From: a virus
Taxonomy: Duplodnaviria; Heunggongvirae; Uroviricota; Caudoviricetes
Virus record (IMG/VR): IMGVR_UViG_2531839127_000027
Direction: 5' to 3' (one strand)
DNA length: 10,629 bases
Shown here: positions 600 through 10,065 of the stretch, one piece after another
Numbering within the stretch: position 1 is the first letter of the stretch
Layout of the letters: every line of letters starts with the position of its first letter
Made by a program: the position numbers and the translations under genes
Notes under the pieces: generated by a model
What the model saw: the letters and a program-made list of their open reading frames with translations, nothing else
Databases searched by the model: none
What the model was told of the DNA's origin: nothing

Positions 600-1013
600 T
601 CAGGCTGGCGGCACACAGCCGCCACCCATCCACTAATACAGAGATCTAACCATGAATACTGGATATTCTCCCGAACAAGGGCGGGGCTTCGTTCGTCCTG
701 AAAAACAGAATCTGCAAAATTTTGCCGAAATTATTCCGGTTATTTCCGGCCTTACTGGCGGGAGTGAAACCAATATTGTTAACGCCAGAGCGTTGCAGAT
801 GTTTGATGATAAAAAGGGAGTAAATTTAACTTACACCCCTGACGGCAATCAGAATATGAGCATTATCTCTGAGTCAGGTTTCTACAAACTAATAAAAACA
901 AAAAGCGCCCCGTTGCCGGAGCGCCTTTGTGAACAATTAACCTACTGCGCAAAAAATGAATCTGAGCAGTGGGATTATATCAACCGTGTGGCGAAGCGCC
1001 ACAATTGCCGGAT

Positions 1014-1048
1014 AACAGGCAAAACAAAGGCCACCCGCTACGGTGGCC
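1014..1048 (-). terminator. Candidate rho-independent terminator on the minus strand
   Basis: Perfect 7-bp stem GGCCACC (1029-1035) / GGTGGCC (1042-1048) with 6-nt loop. On the minus strand it is followed by a T-rich tract (complement of aacaggcaaaacaaa, 1014-1028). Confidence 0.35.
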
Positions 1049-1127
1049 CCTCGACACAAGCTACACGTTATCCCCAACGCATGAGCATCACCAACAATGC
1101 CACATTTGCGGCTGGTGGGCAATGTGA

Positions 1128-1316
1128 TCAGTCAGATTTGGTTCGTTCCAAGGTTTGCAACGAGAGCTTTTTCCTGTGCTCTTTAAGGAATTTCTCAAGA
1201 GCAAAAGCACATGGCGCGAATCTTTCTGATTCATGCTCTATCTTTCTGCGCCGTCTTTTCCGTGCCGGTGATAATGTTTTGGTCAATTCTTTATCGGTCA
1301 TTGTGTTGTCCTGCAT
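1128..1316 (-). CDS. Possible small basic protein (about 57-62 aa), downstream of the repressor candidate on the minus strand
   Basis: ORF MQDNTMTDKELTKTLSPARKRRRRKIEHESERF...; internal Met (MTDKEL) has an AGGA 8 nt upstream. Hydrophilic, plausible composition. No recognisable family. Confidence 0.25.
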   Translation of the reverse strand: MQDNTMTDKELTKTLSPARKRRRRKIEHESERFAPCAFALEKFLKEHRKKLSLQTLERTKSD

Positions 1317-1358
1317 AGCAATGCGCCGTAATACCTTACACCACGGCGCTGATGGTGA

Positions 1359-1664
1359 TTACTCTGGTTCTTTGGTCTTGCGACGCTGGAGTTCTTCGCG
1401 TGCAACGGTGACAAGCTGCCCGATTTCTTCCGCTGCTTTGATGCCGATTTGTTCGACCTTAGCCAGGGCATCCAGTGACGACACAAGGGGATTTTCTCCG
1501 CTGCCTTCTGCTTGGCGGCGGGCTATTTCTCCGCGCATGGCGGTTACGATAAATCCGGCATTGCTTTCGCCGTCCAGCTTAACGGATTCCATCCCTTGCA
1601 TAACATCTAGTGGGACTCTGACAGTTGTCAGTTGTGATTTTGCGTTTTTGTTAGCCGTTGCCAT
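1359..1664 (-). CDS. Putative ribbon-helix-helix (CopG/Arc-like) transcriptional repressor, 101 aa
   Basis: ATG at 1664 preceded on the minus strand by GGAG with 8-nt spacing. N-terminus QLTTVRVPLDVMQGMESVKL...SNAGFIVTAMRGEIARRQ fits a beta-strand/helix/helix RHH pattern. Divergent from the replication operon across an operator-bearing promoter region. Confidence 0.55.
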   Translation of the reverse strand: MATANKNAKSQLTTVRVPLDVMQGMESVKLDGESNAGFIVTAMRGEIARRQAEGSGENPLVSSLDALAKVEQIGIKAAEEIGQLVTVAREELQRRKTKEPE

Positions 1665-1685
1665 TTCTGAAACTCCTAATCATCG

Positions 1686-1763
1686 GTGTGTTTCAGTATA
1701 CACAAAAAAAGAAATACAAAAAGCCTTGACGTGTGTTTCATGCGCTCATAACATGAAACACAC
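1686..1763. promoter_or_regulatory. Operator region: perfect 12-bp inverted repeat GTGTGTTTCATG (1731-1742) / CATGAAACACAC (1752-1763) plus a third half-site GTGTGTTTCA (1686-1695)
   Basis: Read directly. The inverted repeat overlaps the spacer and -10 of the rightward promoter. The third half-site lies 45 bp upstream, next to a TATACT -10-like hexamer on the minus strand (complement of 1695-1700). Confidence 0.55.
1726..1754 (+). promoter_or_regulatory. Candidate sigma70 promoter for the rightward replication operon (TTGACG, 17-bp spacer, TAACAT)
   Basis: TTGACG at 1726-1731 and TAACAT at 1749-1754; about 100 bp upstream of the first operon ORF. Confidence 0.45.
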
Positions 1764-1861
1764 CAAAAGAATTGTTGAAATACAAAGAGCAACGCCCCGC
1801 AGTGCCGGAAACACATACGGGGCGTCTAACCACCAACGATAGCAAGATTATCGAGGCTGCT

Positions 1862-2720: not shown

Positions 2721-3008
2721 ATGAAAAAGAAAATTTCTGGCTTTACTGCCAGCGGCCCCGCTCGGCCTGAAATCCGCCCCGGCGATATTTTCCGGGATAA
2801 CTACGGCGGCACGATAACGATAAAAGACGTGGAAGAACGGCGCATCACCTACCGTCGTGAAGGCTACGACTATGACTGCGTGATGCCTGTTTATCAGTTC
2901 CGGCGTGATTTTAAGCTGGTGGGCCATCGTAAAGCCGTAAATCAGAAACGTGCAGCAAGCTATATCCGCAAAATCCGTGAAATGCTGGTCGCAGGGGGTA
3001 AGAAATGA
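2721..3008 (+). CDS. Small hypothetical protein (95 aa), translationally coupled to the primase gene
   Basis: ATG 2721 preceded by AGGAAA; stop overlaps the primase start (ATGA at 3005-3008). Confidence 0.5.
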   Translation: MKKKISGFTASGPARPEIRPGDIFRDNYGGTITIKDVEERRITYRREGYDYDCVMPVYQFRRDFKLVGHRKAVNQKRAASYIRKIREMLVAGGKK

Positions 3009-4753
3009 AACTGGCACCGAACGTAAAAAAACAACCACGCGGAATAAAGCACAAAGAAACAGAGGTAATTATTTTCGCGGGTAGTGATGCGTGGGCACAT
3101 GCAAAACAGTGGCAGGAACAGGACGGCCCCGCATCCGGCGATAATGTGCCGCCTGTGTGGCTTGGGCCAAATCAGCTTGCTGAACTTGATGCGCTGAAAA
3201 TTGTTCCGGATGGAAAAAAACGCGTAAGGCTGTACCAGGCCGGAGAACTGGATTTAGTGGAGATCAAAAAGATTGGTCAGAAGCTGGCGGCGGCAGGCGT
3301 ACAGGACGCAAATTTTTACCCCGAAGGAATGCACCACCACGAGCGGCAGAACTGGCGGCGCTATCTGAGTGCTGAGTGTGAAAATATTGCCGCAGGGCTT
3401 ACCATGCCGGAACAGAAAAAAGCACAACTTTCACAGATGGCAGACAGTGAACGGGCACAGCTTCTTGCTTCCCGCTTTGATGGTGTCTGCGTCCATGCCG
3501 AAAGTGAAATCGTTCACGTATGGCGCGGCGGGGTATGGTGTCCGGTCAGCACAATGGAACTTAGCCGCGAAATGGTGGCGATCTATTCAGAGCACAGGGC
3601 CACTTTCAGCAAGCGCGTAATCAATAACGCCGTGGAAGCGTTAAAAGTTATTGCCGAACCAATGGGCGAGCCGTCCGGCGATTTGCTGCCGTTCGCCAAT
3701 GGTGCGCTTGACCTGAAAACGGGGGAATTTTCCCCGCACACGCCGGAGAACTGGATCACCACGCACAACGGCATTGAGTACACGCTACCAGCACCAGGGG
3801 AAAACATCCGCGATAACGCGCCAAACTTTCATAAATGGCTTGAGCACGCAGCCGGAAAAGACCCGCGCAAGATGATGCGTATATGTGCCGCGCTGTACAT
3901 GATTATGGCGAACCGGTACGACTGGCAGATGTTTATTGAGGCCACCGGAGACGGCGGTAGCGGTAAAAGTACATTCACACACATAGCCAGCCTTCTGGCA
4001 GGGAAACAGAACACGGTAAGCGCTGAAATGACATCGCTTGATGATGCTGGTGGACGTGCGCAGGTTGTCGGGAGTCGTCTTATCGTCCTGGCTGACCAGC
4101 CGAAATATACAGGCGAAGGAACGGGCATCAAGAAAATCACAGGCGGCGACCCCGTGGAAATTAACCCGAAATATGAAAAGCGTTTCACGGCGGTAATCAG
4201 GGCGGTGGTGCTGGCGACCAACAACAACCCGATGATATTCACCGAACGGGCCGGAGGGGTGGCACGTCGTCGCGTGATTTTCCGTTTCGACAATATCGTC
4301 AGTGAGGCCGAAAAAGACAGGGAGCTACCGGAAAAGATTGCGGCTGAAATCCCCGTTATTATCCGCCGATTGCTGGCGAACTTTACCGACCCTGAGAAGG
4401 CACGGGCTTTACTACTGGAACAGCGTGACGGTGATGAAGCACTGGCGATAAAGCAGCAAACGGATCCAGTTATTGAGTTTTGCCAGTTCCTGAATTTTCT
4501 GGAGGAAGCGCGTGGCCTGATGATGGGCGGCGGTGGTGATTCCGTGAAGTACACAACCAGGAACAGCCTTTACCGTGTCTATCTGGCGTTTATGGCTTAC
4601 GCAGGCAGGACCAAACCGCTGAACGTAAATGACTTTGGCAAGGCTATGAAGCCCGCCGCGAAAGTTTACGGACATGAATATATTACGCGAAAAGTTAAGG
4701 GGGTAACGCAGACTAACGCAATAACAACAGACGATTGCGAAGCGTTTTTATAA
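3005..4753 (+). CDS. Replication protein: SF3/D5-type NTPase primase-helicase (P4 alpha-like C-terminal region), 582 aa
   Basis: Walker A GDGGSGKST (encoded near 3949-3975), a hydrophobic strand ending in aspartate (LIVLAD) that could be a Walker B, and a later VVLATNNNP stretch. GGGGG RBS before ATG 3005. Followed by an iteron cluster. Confidence 0.85.
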   Translation: MKLAPNVKKQPRGIKHKETEVIIFAGSDAWAHAKQWQEQDGPASGDNVPPVWLGPNQLAELDALKIVPDGKKRVRLYQAGELDLVEIKKIGQKLAAAGVQDANFYPEGMHHHERQNWRRYLSAECENIAAGLTMPEQKKAQLSQMADSERAQLLASRFDGVCVHAESEIVHVWRGGVWCPVSTMELSREMVAIYSEHRATFSKRVINNAVEALKVIAEPMGEPSGDLLPFANGALDLKTGEFSPHTPENWITTHNGIEYTLPAPGENIRDNAPNFHKWLEHAAGKDPRKMMRICAALYMIMANRYDWQMFIEATGDGGSGKSTFTHIASLLAGKQNTVSAEMTSLDDAGGRAQVVGSRLIVLADQPKYTGEGTGIKKITGGDPVEINPKYEKRFTAVIRAVVLATNNNPMIFTERAGGVARRRVIFRFDNIVSEAEKDRELPEKIAAEIPVIIRRLLANFTDPEKARALLLEQRDGDEALAIKQQTDPVIEFCQFLNFLEEARGLMMGGGGDSVKYTTRNSLYRVYLAFMAYAGRTKPLNVNDFGKAMKPAAKVYGHEYITRKVKGVTQTNAITTDDCEAFL

Positions 4754-4766
4754 TTTTTTGCAATGG

Positions 4767-4994
4767 CTGTCTACCCTGTCTACCTGGGTAAAGGAAAATA
4801 CATTTAATTCAGTATATTAACTTAGGTAGACAGCCTTTTTTCACTATCTACCTACTATCTACCCTCTCTACCTGATTTTACCTGAATCAGACAGGGAGGT
4901 AGATACGGGGTAGATAGTGGATAAAAGCACTCTACCCCGATGAAAGCCGCGCCATTACTGGCATTGGGGCCAGCAAGGTAGATAAGGTAGACAA
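4767..4994. repeat. Iteron cluster, candidate origin of replication: 11 copies of TCTACC / GGTAGA in both orientations around an AT-rich core (4791-4823)
   Basis: Read directly: TCTACC at 4770, 4779, 4847, 4857, 4867, 4931; GGTAGA at 4825, 4898, 4909, 4977, 4987. Immediately downstream of the primase-helicase gene. Confidence 0.55.
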
Positions 4995-5042
4995 GGGGAG
5001 GTACAACTCAAAACTTTTTAAACGAGGGGGGTAAAAATAAAA

Positions 5043-5300
5043 ATGCACACATCAGGAAAATTTAACAATCAGAAGAAACCACATAACCGCGCCATTGACC
5101 TTACAGAGCACTGGCTGAGGATGGCGATAAAAATCATCGACCGCAACACGGGAGAGGGATACGCGAAAGCACATCCCGAACTGATAAGCGCATTCATGAC
5201 CACAGCGGCGGCAAACTTTGCCACGCTGACAGATCGGGAGATTGCCGAAGCGGAACAGGTGACAACCATCAACGTTAAAACCGGAGAGCATACAGCATGA
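5043..5300 (+). CDS. Hypothetical protein (85 aa), coupled to the downstream ssb-like gene
   Basis: ATG 5043 follows GAGGGGGG (12-nt spacing); stop overlaps the ssb start (ATGA at 5297-5300). Confidence 0.45.
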   Translation: MHTSGKFNNQKKPHNRAIDLTEHWLRMAIKIIDRNTGEGYAKAHPELISAFMTTAAANFATLTDREIAEAEQVTTINVKTGEHTA

Positions 5301-5719
5301 CAGCACAGATAGCGGCTTACGGGCGGCTGGTGGCTGACCCGCAGTTAAAGACCACCAGCAAGGGCACAACAATGGCGATGGCGAGTATGGCGGTTTCCCT
5401 GCCGTGCAGCCAGGCAGATGACGGAACGGCGACGATGTGGTTATCCGTCCTGGCGTTTGGCAGACAGGCCGACGCACTGGCCAGACACCATAAAGGCGAA
5501 CTGGTGAGCGTGGCGGGTAACATGCAGGTAAGCCAGTGGACAGGCCAGAACGGCGAAACGCGGCAGGGCTGGCAGGTCATCGCAGACAGCGTAATCAGTG
5601 CGAGAACGGCGCGACCGGGCGGCAAAAAAGGCCAGCAGGGCCAGGCTACTGACGCGCTGAACAGGGCAAAACAACAGGCGGGAAATGATGATCCGTACGG
5701 GGATAACATACCGTTTTAA
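5297..5719 (+). CDS. Single-stranded DNA-binding protein homolog (OB fold) with SSB-type C-terminal tip ending IPF, 140 aa
   Basis: By-eye alignment to E. coli SSB: GRLVADPQ / GNLGQDP, WLSVLAFGRQADAL / WHRVVLFGKLAEVA, KGELVSVAGNMQVSQWTGQNGETR / [24 protein letters not shown]. C-terminus DDPYGDNIPF resembles the SSB acidic tail DFDDDIPF. GGAGAG RBS. Confidence 0.75.
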   Translation: MTAQIAAYGRLVADPQLKTTSKGTTMAMASMAVSLPCSQADDGTATMWLSVLAFGRQADALARHHKGELVSVAGNMQVSQWTGQNGETRQGWQVIADSVISARTARPGGKKGQQGQATDALNRAKQQAGNDDPYGDNIPF

Positions 5720-6041: not shown

Positions 6042-6143
6042 GTGTCTGAATCTGATCAATCTATTTTTATGATAGAAATATGTTTATCTACCACTTTTAT
6101 CGATCAATAATGCGCGCAGTTTAGTCAGTAAGAGGAAGTTACT

Positions 6144-6353
6144 GTGAATTGTATTAACGACCTGAACACAGGCGAGGTAAAAGGTGGTTCCGTTCATCTG
6201 GATGCGCAGACCGTTATGCGCCTTAAGCAGTACAGGATCGACCACATAAATCATCATCCTGACCAACCATTACCAGGTGTGGCGCAGATTGTCAGACACG
6301 CAGTTAACGCGTGGCTTGATAAGAATGGTTTTGCATCTGGGGGTGAGCAATGA
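6144..6353 (+). CDS. Small protein (69 aa, GTG start), possibly ribbon-helix-helix-like; first gene of the capsid operon
   Basis: GTG 6144 preceded by AAGAGGA with 7-nt spacing. Stop overlaps the capsid gene start (ATGA at 6350-6353). Pattern SVHLDAQTVMRLKQY...AQIVRHAVNAWL is strand-helix-helix-like. Confidence 0.5.
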   Translation: MNCINDLNTGEVKGGSVHLDAQTVMRLKQYRIDHINHHPDQPLPGVAQIVRHAVNAWLDKNGFASGGEQ

Positions 6354-8263
6354 ATCACTGGTACACCATTAAGGCGGCGGGTGTTCGCGGAGCGGCAGAA
6401 ATATCCATCTATGAAGAAATTGGCGGCTTCGGTATCACCGCGAAGCAGTTTGCGGAAGACCTGAAAGCCCTGGGCGATGTCTCACATATCGACCTGCGGA
6501 TCCATTCGCCAGGTGGTGACGTGTTTGAAGGCATCGCCATCTATAACCTGTTACGGAATCATCCGGCAGAAATTACGGTTTATATCGATGGTGTTGCGGC
6601 TTCAATGGCTTCGGTTGTCGCAATGGCTGGCGATCGTGTTGTGATGCCGGAAAACGCCATGATGATGATACATAAGCCGTGGGGTATCTCTGGCGGAAAT
6701 GCTGGTGATATGCGTGATTATGCTGATTTGCTGGATAAGGTGGAAACCGTGTTAGTCCCTGCTTATGCCAGAAAAACGGGCAAATCAGCACAGGAAATTA
6801 CCGCCATGCTGGAAGATGAAACCTGGATGGACGGGAAAGAATGCCTTAAGCACGGTTTTGCTGATGAATTGTTGCCATCTGTCACAGCAATGGCGCGAAT
6901 TGAATCGAAACGCACAGGAGATTTTTCACACATGCCGGAAACCATTAAAGGAATGATTACCCCGCCACAGGGAGCAGCCAATATTGCTGGTAATGAACAG
7001 AAGCGCATCAACGGAATAAGTGAAGTGTTTAGCCTGTTCGGCAGTCGTTACGACGGGATCAAAATGGCGTGCCTGGAAGATGCATCATGTACACCGGAGA
7101 TGGCCCGTGAAAAGTTGTTGAACGAGATGGGGCGCGAGTCCACGCCATCCAATAAAAATACCCCGGCTCATATTTATGCCGGTAACGGGAACATAACAGG
7201 CGATGCAATTCGTCAGGGGCTTTATTCCCGTCTCGGGTATGAACGCCCAGAGCGGGGAAATCCTTACGCGATGATGAGCCTTTTTGAAATGGCCCAGGCA
7301 TCACTAACGGATCGTGGTATCAGTGTTGGCGGTTTTTTAAATCGCTCGCAGGTCGTTAATGCAGCTTTCACACACAGCAGCAGCGATTTTTCTCACATTC
7401 TGGCTGGTGGTGCTGAAAAATCAGTACTGAAAGGCTGGCAGGACAGCGGCGAAACGTTCCAGAAATGGACGCGTACCGGATCGCTTTCAAACTTTCATGA
7501 AGCAAAGCGCGTTGGTCTGAATGGTTTTTCAAAGCTGGATAAAGTACCGGAAGGTGCGGAATATAAATACATCACCACCAGCGATAAAGGTGTACCTATT
7601 GCGCTGGCCACATACGGTAATATTTTTTCTGTTACCCGTCAGGCCATTATCAACGATGACCTGACCCAGTTAACTACAATCCCCATGGCGATGGGGCGTG
7701 CGGCCGCCAGAACAGTAGGTAATCTGGTTTATCTTCTGTTAACCAGCAACGGCAAATTTACGGATAGTAAAGCGTTATTCCATGCCGATCATAAAAATCT
7801 TATTGCGAAGGATATGGACATGGAGGGGCTTAACGAAGCCCGTAAGCTGATGCGACTACAGGAGGATGCCAACGGCGACTCCCTGAATATTACCCCCGCA
7901 TTTGTCCTGGCCCCCGCCGCGCTGGAGTCTGCCGCACATCGCGCCATTCTGTCATCGTCATCACTCTTTCCGGTTGATGGTGATGGCACTATCAATCAGA
8001 ACCCCGGTATCATTAACGTGGTGAAAGATATGGCTGAGGTTATTGTTGAGCCACGTCTTGATAAGAACAATAACAAGGAGTGGTATGTAGCCGCAGCGAA
8101 AGGGATGGACACGATAGAGGTCGCTTATCTTGATGGTATTGATACGCCATATCTTGAGGAGCAGGTGGGCTTTACTGTTGATGGTGTCGCCTGGAAGGTG
8201 CGCATAGATGCAGGTGTCGCGGCCCTCGATTATCGTGGACTACTGAAATCGAACGGAGCATGA
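6350..8263 (+). CDS. Fusion polyprotein: N-terminal ClpP-like (S14-type) prohead protease domain, linker/scaffold-like region, C-terminal HK97-fold major capsid protein; 637 aa
   Basis: N-terminal region carries ClpP catalytic-site motifs GVAASMAS (ClpP GQAASMG) and MIHKP (ClpP MIHQP). C-terminal about 330 aa has capsid-like features (FSVTRQAIINDD, TIEVAYLDG, GLLKS). GGGGTGAG RBS. Confidence 0.85.
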   Translation: MNHWYTIKAAGVRGAAEISIYEEIGGFGITAKQFAEDLKALGDVSHIDLRIHSPGGDVFEGIAIYNLLRNHPAEITVYIDGVAASMASVVAMAGDRVVMPENAMMMIHKPWGISGGNAGDMRDYADLLDKVETVLVPAYARKTGKSAQEITAMLEDETWMDGKECLKHGFADELLPSVTAMARIESKRTGDFSHMPETIKGMITPPQGAANIAGNEQKRINGISEVFSLFGSRYDGIKMACLEDASCTPEMAREKLLNEMGRESTPSNKNTPAHIYAGNGNITGDAIRQGLYSRLGYERPERGNPYAMMSLFEMAQASLTDRGISVGGFLNRSQVVNAAFTHSSSDFSHILAGGAEKSVLKGWQDSGETFQKWTRTGSLSNFHEAKRVGLNGFSKLDKVPEGAEYKYITTSDKGVPIALATYGNIFSVTRQAIINDDLTQLTTIPMAMGRAAARTVGNLVYLLLTSNGKFTDSKALFHADHKNLIAKDMDMEGLNEARKLMRLQEDANGDSLNITPAFVLAPAALESAAHRAILSSSSLFPVDGDGTINQNPGIINVVKDMAEVIVEPRLDKNNNKEWYVAAAKGMDTIEVAYLDGIDTPYLEEQVGFTVDGVAWKVRIDAGVAALDYRGLLKSNGA

Positions 8264-8368: not shown

Positions 8369-8521
8369 TCGTCATCATCATCTTTCTATCATATTGAATA
8401 TTAAGTGTTTTTATTTTTGGTATGTTAATTTCGCTTATTTTGTGTTCAACATACAGCGCGTTTTTTGACCTTTTTTGAAAGATATTTGCAAGATGCATGT
8501 TTAAAACATTCTGGAGCGGGT

Positions 8522-9007
8522 ATGGATCGGGAACTGAAAAATCTGATGCTGAACATTAACCAGCTGGCGGCGATAGCGGGAATATGTCGCCAGACTGCGG
8601 CGGCAAGGCTGAAAAATATCCAGCCAGCCGGAGGACATGACAAGCTGAAACTCTATCGGGTGACTGACATTCTGACCTGTTTTCTTGATCTTCCCGTTCC
8701 GGCATCACTGGAAGAAATGGAGCCACACGACCGTAAGGCCTGGTATCAGTCCGAACGTGAGCGCCTCAAGTTCGAACAGGAAACGGCGCAACTCATACCC
8801 GCCGATGATGTGCGAAAAGAGATGGCTATATGGGGAGAAATCGTAAGCGAGGAACTGGAAAAACTCCCCAGTATTCTGGCACGTGATGCTGGGCTTAAAC
8901 CGATGGCAGTAAACAGAGTGCAGTCAATTATTGACGATTTGTGTAATCAGATTATCAGCCGGATGGTGAAAAATGACGTAGTGAATGAGGTCGCAAAACA
9001 GGCATGA
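8522..9007 (+). CDS. Nu1-like terminase small subunit homolog (161 aa); candidate packaging-specificity or packaging-redirecting protein
   Basis: ATG 8522 preceded by GGAG with 5-nt spacing. N-terminus LNINQLAAIAGICRQTAAARLKN resembles the lambda Nu1 HTH region (KKQLADIFGASIRTIQNWQ) as recalled. Sits directly downstream of the cos-like region. The listed ORF starts at a TTG at 8465 without an RBS. Confidence 0.7.
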   Translation: MDRELKNLMLNINQLAAIAGICRQTAAARLKNIQPAGGHDKLKLYRVTDILTCFLDLPVPASLEEMEPHDRKAWYQSERERLKFEQETAQLIPADDVRKEMAIWGEIVSEELEKLPSILARDAGLKPMAVNRVQSIIDDLCNQIISRMVKNDVVNEVAKQA

Positions 9008-9297: not shown

Positions 9298-9332
9298 GTG
9301 ACATACCGTGACGGAGAGTGACACACAGTGAC
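9298..9332. repeat. Four direct GTGAC repeats with exact 10-bp phasing; candidate recombinase/excisionase binding array near the right end
   Basis: Read directly: GTGAC at 9298, 9308, 9318, 9328, immediately after the last element ORF. Confidence 0.45.
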
Positions 9333-9823
9333 AAAAAAGACGGTATTTAAATCGGGTGGTGTTTAATACCCCCAGGGGGATAGAAATCCCTACACCTCAT
9401 TGCTTATGGGACCGCCCGCCTACCCTTGTTCACATCGCCGCAGGTTCGAAAACTTTTTTTGGGAAGGTGTGCACGGGATTGATAGATGAGGTCTATCTAT
9501 AAAAAATCACAAAATCCGCGCCATTGCTGGATCCGCCAAAAATCCCCCACCTTACGGCAGACAAAGAAAACGCGAATTATGGGCCTGTTGCAGAGAAAAA
9601 AGGTCTCACTAGTTTTGCGCACCCTAGCATCGAGGTTCGTCAGCCTCCCATCAGCAACCAGATAACTAATCTCGCTGGTGGGCATGATGCCGATATGGGG
9701 ACTTCCATAACGGTTTATCCGTGATCATCCACCAGCTTCATGGCGGATAGCCGGAAAATGATAACGGTATAGCCCGTCGCTTGTGTCTATTTGTTCCGCA
9801 TTGTTGCATACAGTGCACCGAAC

Positions 9824-9847
9824 GGTGTAGTTAATGGTGTAGTTAAT
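9824..9847. repeat. Perfect tandem duplication of the 12-mer GGTGTAGTTAAT in the region upstream of the Smr gene
   Basis: Read directly (9824-9835 and 9836-9847). Confidence 0.4.
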
Positions 9848-10065
9848 TTGCGATTTTTAACGTTATTTGCAGCGATATTTGTTGGTTAAATTCAATAAGT
9901 TATGCGCATTTAATTATAAATATCGTGAATGAATAATCATGCATAAGCATTTTGCTTAAAATATCGGCAATATTTGGAACTTATTACTGGAATTTTGGGT
10001 AATACGTTGTTGGACCGACCCGGTCTGGTTATCATATCGCGCTCTTAATTGCGGGAGGATGTAAC

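Follow-up and report, generated by a model that had tools for sequence, protein, structure and literature searches.

The DNA analyzed here, a stretch of 10,629 bp that we refer to as the window, is E. coli chromosomal DNA: 15 of the 5,426 complete genomes carry 80% or more of it as a single stretch, with 99.9% identity in the genomes listed. The window belongs to an island that lies between abgR and smrA, in which the gene for an initiator protein similar to alpha of phage P4 is followed by a cluster of short repeats in both orientations (Table 1). An earlier note on this DNA had proposed the cluster as an iteron-type replication origin, and we weigh here the evidence that it is the origin of a phage-inducible chromosomal island (PICI) integrated at this site.

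Table 1. Features of the repeat region and its neighbors (window positions; a dot marks features given without a strand)
Feature	Position	Strand	Remark
Initiator gene, Pri-Rep, P4 alpha-like	3005..4753	+	Pfam D5_N, DUF5906, Pox_D5
Origin candidate, 11 iterons, two inverted P4-ori-like modules	4767..4994	.	Axis 4880/4881
Left outer iteron pair, TCTACC 4770 and 4779	4770..4784	+	Invariant in 11/11 aligned islands
AT-rich spacer, proposed unwinding element	4788..4820	.	81.8% AT
Left inner iterons: GGTAGA 4825 (-), TCTACC 4847, 4858, 4867 (+)	4825..4872	.	
Right inner iterons: GGTAGA 4898, 4909 (-), TCTACC 4931 (+)	4898..4936	.	Mirror 4858, 4847, 4825
GC-rich non-iteron block TGAAAGCCGCGCCATTACTGGC in right spacer	4940..4962	.	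Conserved in 11 E. coli islands
Right outer iteron pair, GGTAGA 4977 and 4986	4977..4991	-	Mirror of 4770, 4779
Leader and ribosome-binding site of next gene, AAAACTTTTTAAACGAGGGGGG...	5010..5042	+	Conserved; outside origin proper
Island-encoded single-strand DNA-binding protein, conserved replication module	5297..5719	+	Pfam SSB 3.8e-16, synteny

Eleven iterons downstream of the initiator gene

We found 12 copies of the hexamer TCTACC/GGTAGA in the window, compared to 2.2 +/- 1.5 expected from 200 dinucleotide shuffles, none of which reached 12 (maximum 8). Eleven of the 12 fall within 4770-4991, six of them on the + strand (4770, 4779, 4847, 4858, 4867, 4931) and five, as GGTAGA, on the - strand (4825, 4898, 4909, 4977, 4986); the twelfth is a stray copy at 6087. 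No other hexamer clustered comparably in a scan of the window, and the top hexamer count per 228 bp was 10-11, compared to 4-5 in 60 Markov resamples of the window. When the copies were aligned, the repeat extended to ~9 bp, C-T-(G/A)-TCTACC-(C/T). The 33-mer richest in AT (4788-4820; 81.8%, compared to a window mean of 51%) has two copies to its left and nine to its right, and the first iteron begins 17 bp past the end of the initiator gene. The earlier note had described 11 copies in both orientations that flank a 33-bp AT-rich segment immediately downstream of what it called the primase-helicase gene; the coordinates, the shuffles and the AT scan all agree with this description, as do the gene end at 4753 and the first iteron at 4770.

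The arrangement of the copies is regular. Their start-to-start spacings are 9, 46, 22, 11, 9, 31, 11, 22, 46 and 9, and the cluster has dyad symmetry about an axis at 4880/4881, such that ten iterons form five mirror pairs and the iteron at 4867 is unpaired. The long spacers of the two halves differ in composition, the left one being AT-rich and its mirror spacer (4937-4976) only 40% AT. The dyad symmetry went unnoticed in the first reading.

The repeats are conserved beyond this island. We found the intergenic region in 564 E. coli genomes, with identities from 99% down to ~74%, as part of a replication module (DUF4222, the initiator, the repeat region and a small open reading frame [ORF], usually followed by ssb) that is joined to at least three unrelated capsid modules. 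In an alignment of the region from 11 E. coli islands (mean column identity 70%), the hexamers stood out as invariant blocks: the iteron core columns were 94% conserved and 51 of 66 were invariant, compared to 73% and 34 of 162 elsewhere in 4767-4994 (Fisher p=4e-15). Moreover, in the four most diverged islands the bases 5' of every copy shift together, from CTG/CTA to CCC, and such a concerted change of the 5' flank is the behavior predicted for sites that are read by one protein. The earlier note had suggested examining whether homologous islands lack the cluster; the 11 related E. coli islands keep its hexamers nearly invariant, and the repeats are thus conserved under selection in relatives, a property of origins of the PICI and P4 type.

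One locus, L012 in E. coli O121, has an IS110-family element that interrupts the initiator gene, and its downstream intergenic region is shortened to 205 bp with five iterons left. It looks like a decaying copy of the replicon.

The initiator and its iteron word

The initiator is composed of an N-terminal module of ~135 amino acids (aa) that is weakly Toprim-like, a D5_N domain, a superfamily 3 (SF3) helicase domain (DUF5906) and a C-terminal domain at aa ~486-574. It is 40.6% identical to P4 alpha across aa 139-571; aa 193-430 match PDB 7OLA/7OM0, which are annotated as 'DNA primase' (E=4e-15), and aa 486-574 match PDB 1KA8, the P4 alpha C-terminal domain (E=1e-6). On the evidence of Pfam and of PDB 1KA8 and 7OLA, the protein is an SF3 helicase initiator with a C-terminal winged-helix origin-binding domain, as PICI/P4-type initiators are, and aa ~486-574 are its predicted origin-binding domain. 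Unlike P4 alpha, the initiator of the window appears to lack the ~320-aa N-terminal primase domain, and sequence searches of Pfam, NCBIfam and PDB with its first 150 aa returned no family. This protein, annotated as a 'DNA primase', has no recognizable primase catalytic domain, which bears on how these islands are primed.

We identified four sister islands in which the gene order is that of the window island, the intergenic region measures 286-287 bp, and ~11 copies of CTGTTCACC stand in the same order and orientation. Their initiators are 30-60% identical to that of the window, with ~30% identity in the last 100 residues. The C-terminal domains form two clades that match the two words, with P4 alpha in the TGTTCACC clade.

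A scan of one genome per species added 80 loci, and 81 loci from Enterobacterales and Aeromonas were analyzed. We defined a clear word as a hexamer with at least six copies in the 300 bp after the gene, a count that random 300-bp stretches reach in ~3% of cases. Clear words were present at 47 of the 81 loci, and nine different words occurred among them (TCTACC, TTCACC, GTTCAT, TATACC, CCTACC, GTCACT, CAGTGC, CTGTCC and GTCTAC). Across these 47 loci, the sharing of a word between loci was predicted with an area under the curve (AUC) of 0.87 by identity of the C-terminal domain, compared to 0.67 by identity of the helicase core; with the helicase regressed out, the AUC for the C-terminal domain was 0.84, a value reached by none of 2000 label permutations.

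Domain swaps give the same result. In Raoultella (L083 and L085), a helicase closer to that of P4 is joined to a window-like C-terminus, and 11 TCTACC copies are present; conversely, a window-like helicase with a different C-terminus is accompanied by the word GTGTTCAT at L020, L021 and L024 and by TGTATACC at L022. As in PICI/P4-type origins, the word is specific to the DNA-binding domain of the initiator and changes with it, apart from the two exceptions taken up below. Across many genera, and for nine words or more, the C-terminal domain predicts the iteron word, and such predictions could aid the automatic annotation of satellite origins as well as forecasts of cross-replication or incompatibility.

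Relation to EcCICFT073, phage P4 and other origins

The island EcCICFT073 (AE014075 1377749-1389210) has the same gene order of DUF4222, pri, ori, small orf and ssb. Its region from pri to the next gene is 95.2% identical to that of the window, and all 11 TCTACC iterons are found at identical positions and in identical orientations; its Pri protein is 98% identical over aa 151-582 and 70% identical in the N-terminal 150 aa. A plasmid that carries pri-ori of EcCICFT073 persists at the restrictive temperature, and deletion of either pri or ori from it abolishes maintenance or strongly reduces it (Fillol-Salom et al. 2018, ISME J, PMC6092414). The homology arm of the published delta-pri primer includes the first two iterons (PMC6092414 supplement), and we made the link to the window through this arm and the CFT073 genome. 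The two islands differ in their integration sites (ycfD-phoQ for EcCICFT073; abgR/lysR-smrA for the window island) and in their morphogenesis genes (a lambda-like capsid, a decoration protein and cos sites, compared to a fusion of ClpP-type protease and capsid protein and a DUF1441 TerS-like protein). Since the 95%-identical EcCICFT073 origin has already been published and tested, the feature is not new: the type, the position and the function of such an origin are already known from that near-identical sequence.

The layout of the region was compared to that of phage P4, for which we took the facts from the annotated GenBank record; a literature search for P4 crr gave nothing usable, and a text search of the literature for the word TGTTCACC returned primer sequences only and was uninformative. 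In the record, TGTTCACC bears the label 'ori type 1 repeat' in ori as well as in crr, which lies directly 3' of alpha, and the sister islands have exactly this word. In the P4 ori core (9310-9413), the iterons stand in the order - - - + [AT-rich spacer] - - with spacings of 10, 11, 24, 41 and 10. In the sister islands, the right half of the region has the same order with spacings of 10, 11, 23, 42 and 8, and the right half of the window region has spacings of 11, 22, 46 and 9, its first copy being degenerate, while the left half is the mirror image. Aligned in register, P4 ori is 65-68% identical to both halves of the TGTTCACC-type region and 44-53% identical to the halves in the window. In contrast, the order of the P4 crr unit differs (- + + + spacer - -). 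Because the layout of the ori core and its register match each half and the crr order does not, we describe the region as a pair of inverted P4-ori-like modules. One module, matching register for register, is common to the E. coli PICI origin and the P4 ori core. The likeness extends to the homologous initiator and to 8-9 bp iterons in both orientations; the differences are the word, TCTACC in the window rather than TTCACC, and one spacer that is GC-rich, with a conserved block that P4 lacks.

We conclude, with a probability of about 0.88, that 4767-4994 serves as the origin of replication for a PICI that has integrated between abgR and smrA in E. coli. From our analysis, this conclusion draws on the repeats and their symmetry, their conservation, the covariation of word and C-terminal domain, the homology to P4 ori and the near-identity to EcCICFT073, and from the literature, on the pri- and ori-dependent maintenance of plasmids with the 95%-identical replicon. 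As at PICI/P4-type origins, where iterons measure 5-9 bp, the region lies directly 3' of its initiator gene, and its short repeats, which point both ways, flank an AT-rich segment. The proposal of an iteron-type origin in the earlier note is thus supported by the conservation, the covariation, the P4 ori homology and the EcCICFT073 sequence.

Several points weigh on the other side. Common ancestry is not fully accounted for in the permutation and covariation statistics, and at 34 of the 81 loci, mostly in Xenorhabdus and Photorhabdus (~30), no word reached six copies in the 300 bp downstream. Two loci are exceptions to the match of word and domain: the words at L035 (Escherichia ruysiae) and L077 (Kluyvera georgiana), (C/G)TGTCTAC(C), are close to that of the window, while the C-terminal domains of their initiators are 30-33% identical to that of the window and closer to that of P4. 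The 'ori' that was deleted in the EcCICFT073 plasmid is presumably, but not certainly, the segment compared here. Our analyses of the initiator did not demonstrate a primase catalytic domain. Direct binding by the initiator, melting and a start site within 4767-4994 are features that we infer from sequence, and the P4 cluster in this position, directly 3' of alpha, is not the start site but crr, which acts in cis as a helper.

At an origin of this kind, the C-terminal domain of the initiator would bind the (C)T(G/A)TCTACC iterons, an expectation based on the covariation and on the homology of this domain with its counterpart in P4 alpha. With eleven sites in two opposed P4-ori-like modules, initiator assemblies may form head-to-head around the center, in what would be a double-hexamer geometry. 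The duplex would be opened at the 82% AT spacer (4788-4820), the presumptive melting site, and the helicase would load itself there; the island's own SSB would coat the strands, and a host polymerase would then copy the excised circle. The maker of the primers we can only infer.

We considered that the cluster might be a crr-like cis-acting accessory site, one that binds the initiator and stimulates replication while synthesis starts elsewhere. Its position relative to the initiator gene is the same as that of P4 crr, and its AT-rich spacer shares the motif ACTGAAWTTAAA with the P4 crr spacer. However, the order and orientation of the iterons fit the P4 ori core and not the crr unit. The origin of P4 has two parts, in which ~4.5 kb separate ori from crr, the latter consists of two direct 120-bp units, and both clusters are needed in cis, while the two modules in the window are adjacent and inverted. 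Furthermore, we found no second TCTACC cluster several kb away or anywhere else in the island, the int region outside the window included, and the pri-ori segment of EcCICFT073 alone sustains plasmid maintenance (PMC6092414). On these grounds we regard a crr-like site as improbable.

We consider it quite unlikely that the region is instead an operator or promoter region, in which the repeats bind a transcription factor that controls the orf85-ssb-capsid genes, possibly through autoregulation by the initiator. The region is intergenic and just upstream of a conserved leader and ribosome-binding site, and iterons elsewhere often double as autoregulatory sites, as is the case for those of plasmid Rep proteins. 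However, we found no sigma-70-like match on the + strand and no terminator; a promoter and terminator scan of 4500-5300 yielded one weak - strand match, no more than in shuffles. In Gram-negative PICIs, transcription is described as running in one direction from the alpA region (PMC6092414), and the word covaries with the C-terminal domain of the helicase. The origin might nevertheless have a secondary regulatory role.

The remaining alternative, a packaging site (pac or cosB-like repeats) for the TerS-like protein of the island or a structural cruciform or non-coding RNA, we hold to be highly unlikely, although TerS binding sites are often repeats and the single-stranded DNA fold is strong (z = -7.0). 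The region is common to islands with a DUF1441 TerS, with another TerS family or with none, such as the cos-type EcCICFT073 (PMC6092414), and as it thus accompanies the initiator in islands whose TerS genes are unrelated or absent, a role in packaging is unlikely. A cruciform or hairpin was rejected as a selected feature: pairing outside the core falls to 57% in diverged islands, and compensatory changes occur only at the iteron flanks. The strong single-strand fold is a by-product of the inverted iterons. Likewise, a search of Rfam at a permissive threshold returned only miRNA-hairpin look-alikes, at 22-30 bits compared to gathering scores of 79-150, which we attribute to the dyad symmetry.

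The PICI origin that we favor also differs from the classical iteron origins of plasmids (pSC101, R6K, RK2, F and P1), which have direct repeats of 17-22 bp, Rep_3-type winged-helix initiators and DnaA boxes and use host DnaB. In both kinds, repeated initiator-binding sites (predicted ones in the window) adjoin an AT-rich stretch, but the repeats of the window are 6-9 bp long and in both orientations, its initiator is an SF3 helicase, and a DnaA-like sequence at 4917-4925 is not conserved, so the region falls outside the classical class (Rep_3, pi or TrfA). The overall plan is that of the origins of Staphylococcus aureus pathogenicity islands (SaPIs, which are Gram-positive PICIs); these origins lie immediately 3' of rep and have 6-12 penta- or hexanucleotide iterons in opposite directions on both sides of a central AT-rich region, and their Rep initiator, which loads itself, is an SF3 helicase with a C-terminal winged-helix domain (PMC9371898), as is predicted for the initiator here. 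Unlike in SaPIs, the AT-rich region of the window is off-center: it is not at the dyad axis but in one half, where it separates the outer pair from the inner group. The iteron words also differ.

Spacer elements and the rest of the island

The GC-rich block TGAAAGCCGCGCCATTACTGGC in the right spacer is identical at 21 of 23 positions in all 11 aligned E. coli islands, and the other two positions vary in one or two sequences. Rosenbergiella (L023), Xenorhabdus (L025), Raoultella (L083) and Aeromonas (L037) have a related element, AAAGCC followed by a short palindrome, in a spacer of this kind; the element is absent from the TGTTCACC-type origins and from P4. As a speculation that we consider more doubtful than probable, the Enterobacterales PICI origin might have arisen by an inverted duplication of a P4 ori module, of which one copy kept the AT-rich unwinding spacer and the other swapped in the GC-rich block at 4940-4962; the block would then be the site for a second factor (from the host, a helper phage or the island itself, such as DUF4222 or orf85) that gates or orients firing.

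At 4800-4822, a small motif of the AT-rich spacer, TTCA......TA, is conserved on the + strand. It corresponds to ACTGAAWTTAAA in the P4 crr spacer, and its reverse complement resembles both ACTGAAATTAAAAG in the same P4 spacer and TACTG.AT in P4 ori. The spacer also has an IHF-like match on the + strand (TTCAGTATATTAA compared to the consensus WATCARNNNNTTR), with one mismatch.

Two other candidates were rejected. The sequence GTGGATAA at 4917-4925 is the complement of a near-perfect DnaA box (TTATCCAC) and is present in the closest relatives; because it is lost in L006 and L007, we did not treat it as part of the origin, and it is probably not functional. A micro-ORF from the ATG at 4941 was set aside, as most relatives have CTG at its start codon.

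The left part of the island consists of an integrase gene (just left of the window), alpA, an icd-like gene, small ORFs, DUF4222 and the P4-family helicase-initiator, and the repeat region is followed by an 85-aa ORF, the SSB gene, a fusion of ClpP-type protease and capsid protein, and the DUF1441 TerS-like protein. This gene order is the Gram-negative PICI layout of Fillol-Salom et al. 2018 (PMC6092414). The island has the features of that class: the int-alpA-pri-rep-ori order, unidirectional transcription, a size of ~10-12 kb and a dedicated att site that is not used by prophages.

Two pairs of repeats appear to mark the ends. The att core ACATTATTAATATCGTGA precedes the integrase gene by 175 bp in the genomic context of the window (L001 6622), and a diverged copy with three mismatches lies at L001 17910 (about window 9910-9927). 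A direct repeat of 25-26 bp, made of the 12-mer GGTGTAGTTAAT twice in tandem, occurs at L001 6767, upstream of int, and at 17822 (about window 9822-9847). The right-hand copies are ~11.1-11.3 kb downstream of the left-hand ones, and about 9822-9927 of the window is the probable right end of the island. The tandem GGTGTAGTTAAT upstream of int resembles the tandem 12-bp attP arm repeats of P4; the same 26-mer is given as the att sequence of the PICI EcCIDI14 (PMC6092414 Table S1). According to the same table, EcCIEC2733.1 is a 10.5-kb PICI at lysR-smrA with the att core ACATTATTAATATCGTGA; it is thus like the window island in att core, integration site and size (~10.5 kb), as given in its Table S1 entry.

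We also noted a 396-aa ORF at 652-1842 (+) that is not in the RefSeq annotation and overlaps a YlcI/YnfO-like gene on the opposite strand (1359-1664). Its similarity to anti-repressor (Ant) families is limited to a weak match of 30 residues; the sister islands have BRO-N or AntA/AntB genes at this position.

No portal protein or large terminase is encoded in the island. Its morphogenesis genes, at 6350-8263 and 8465-9007, encode a ClpP-type prohead protease fused to the major capsid protein and a DUF1441 small-terminase-like protein, while relatives with the same replication module have lambda-like capsid and decoration genes or an HK97 capsid with a protease. Given these differing capsid sets, the morphogenesis module is freely exchanged.
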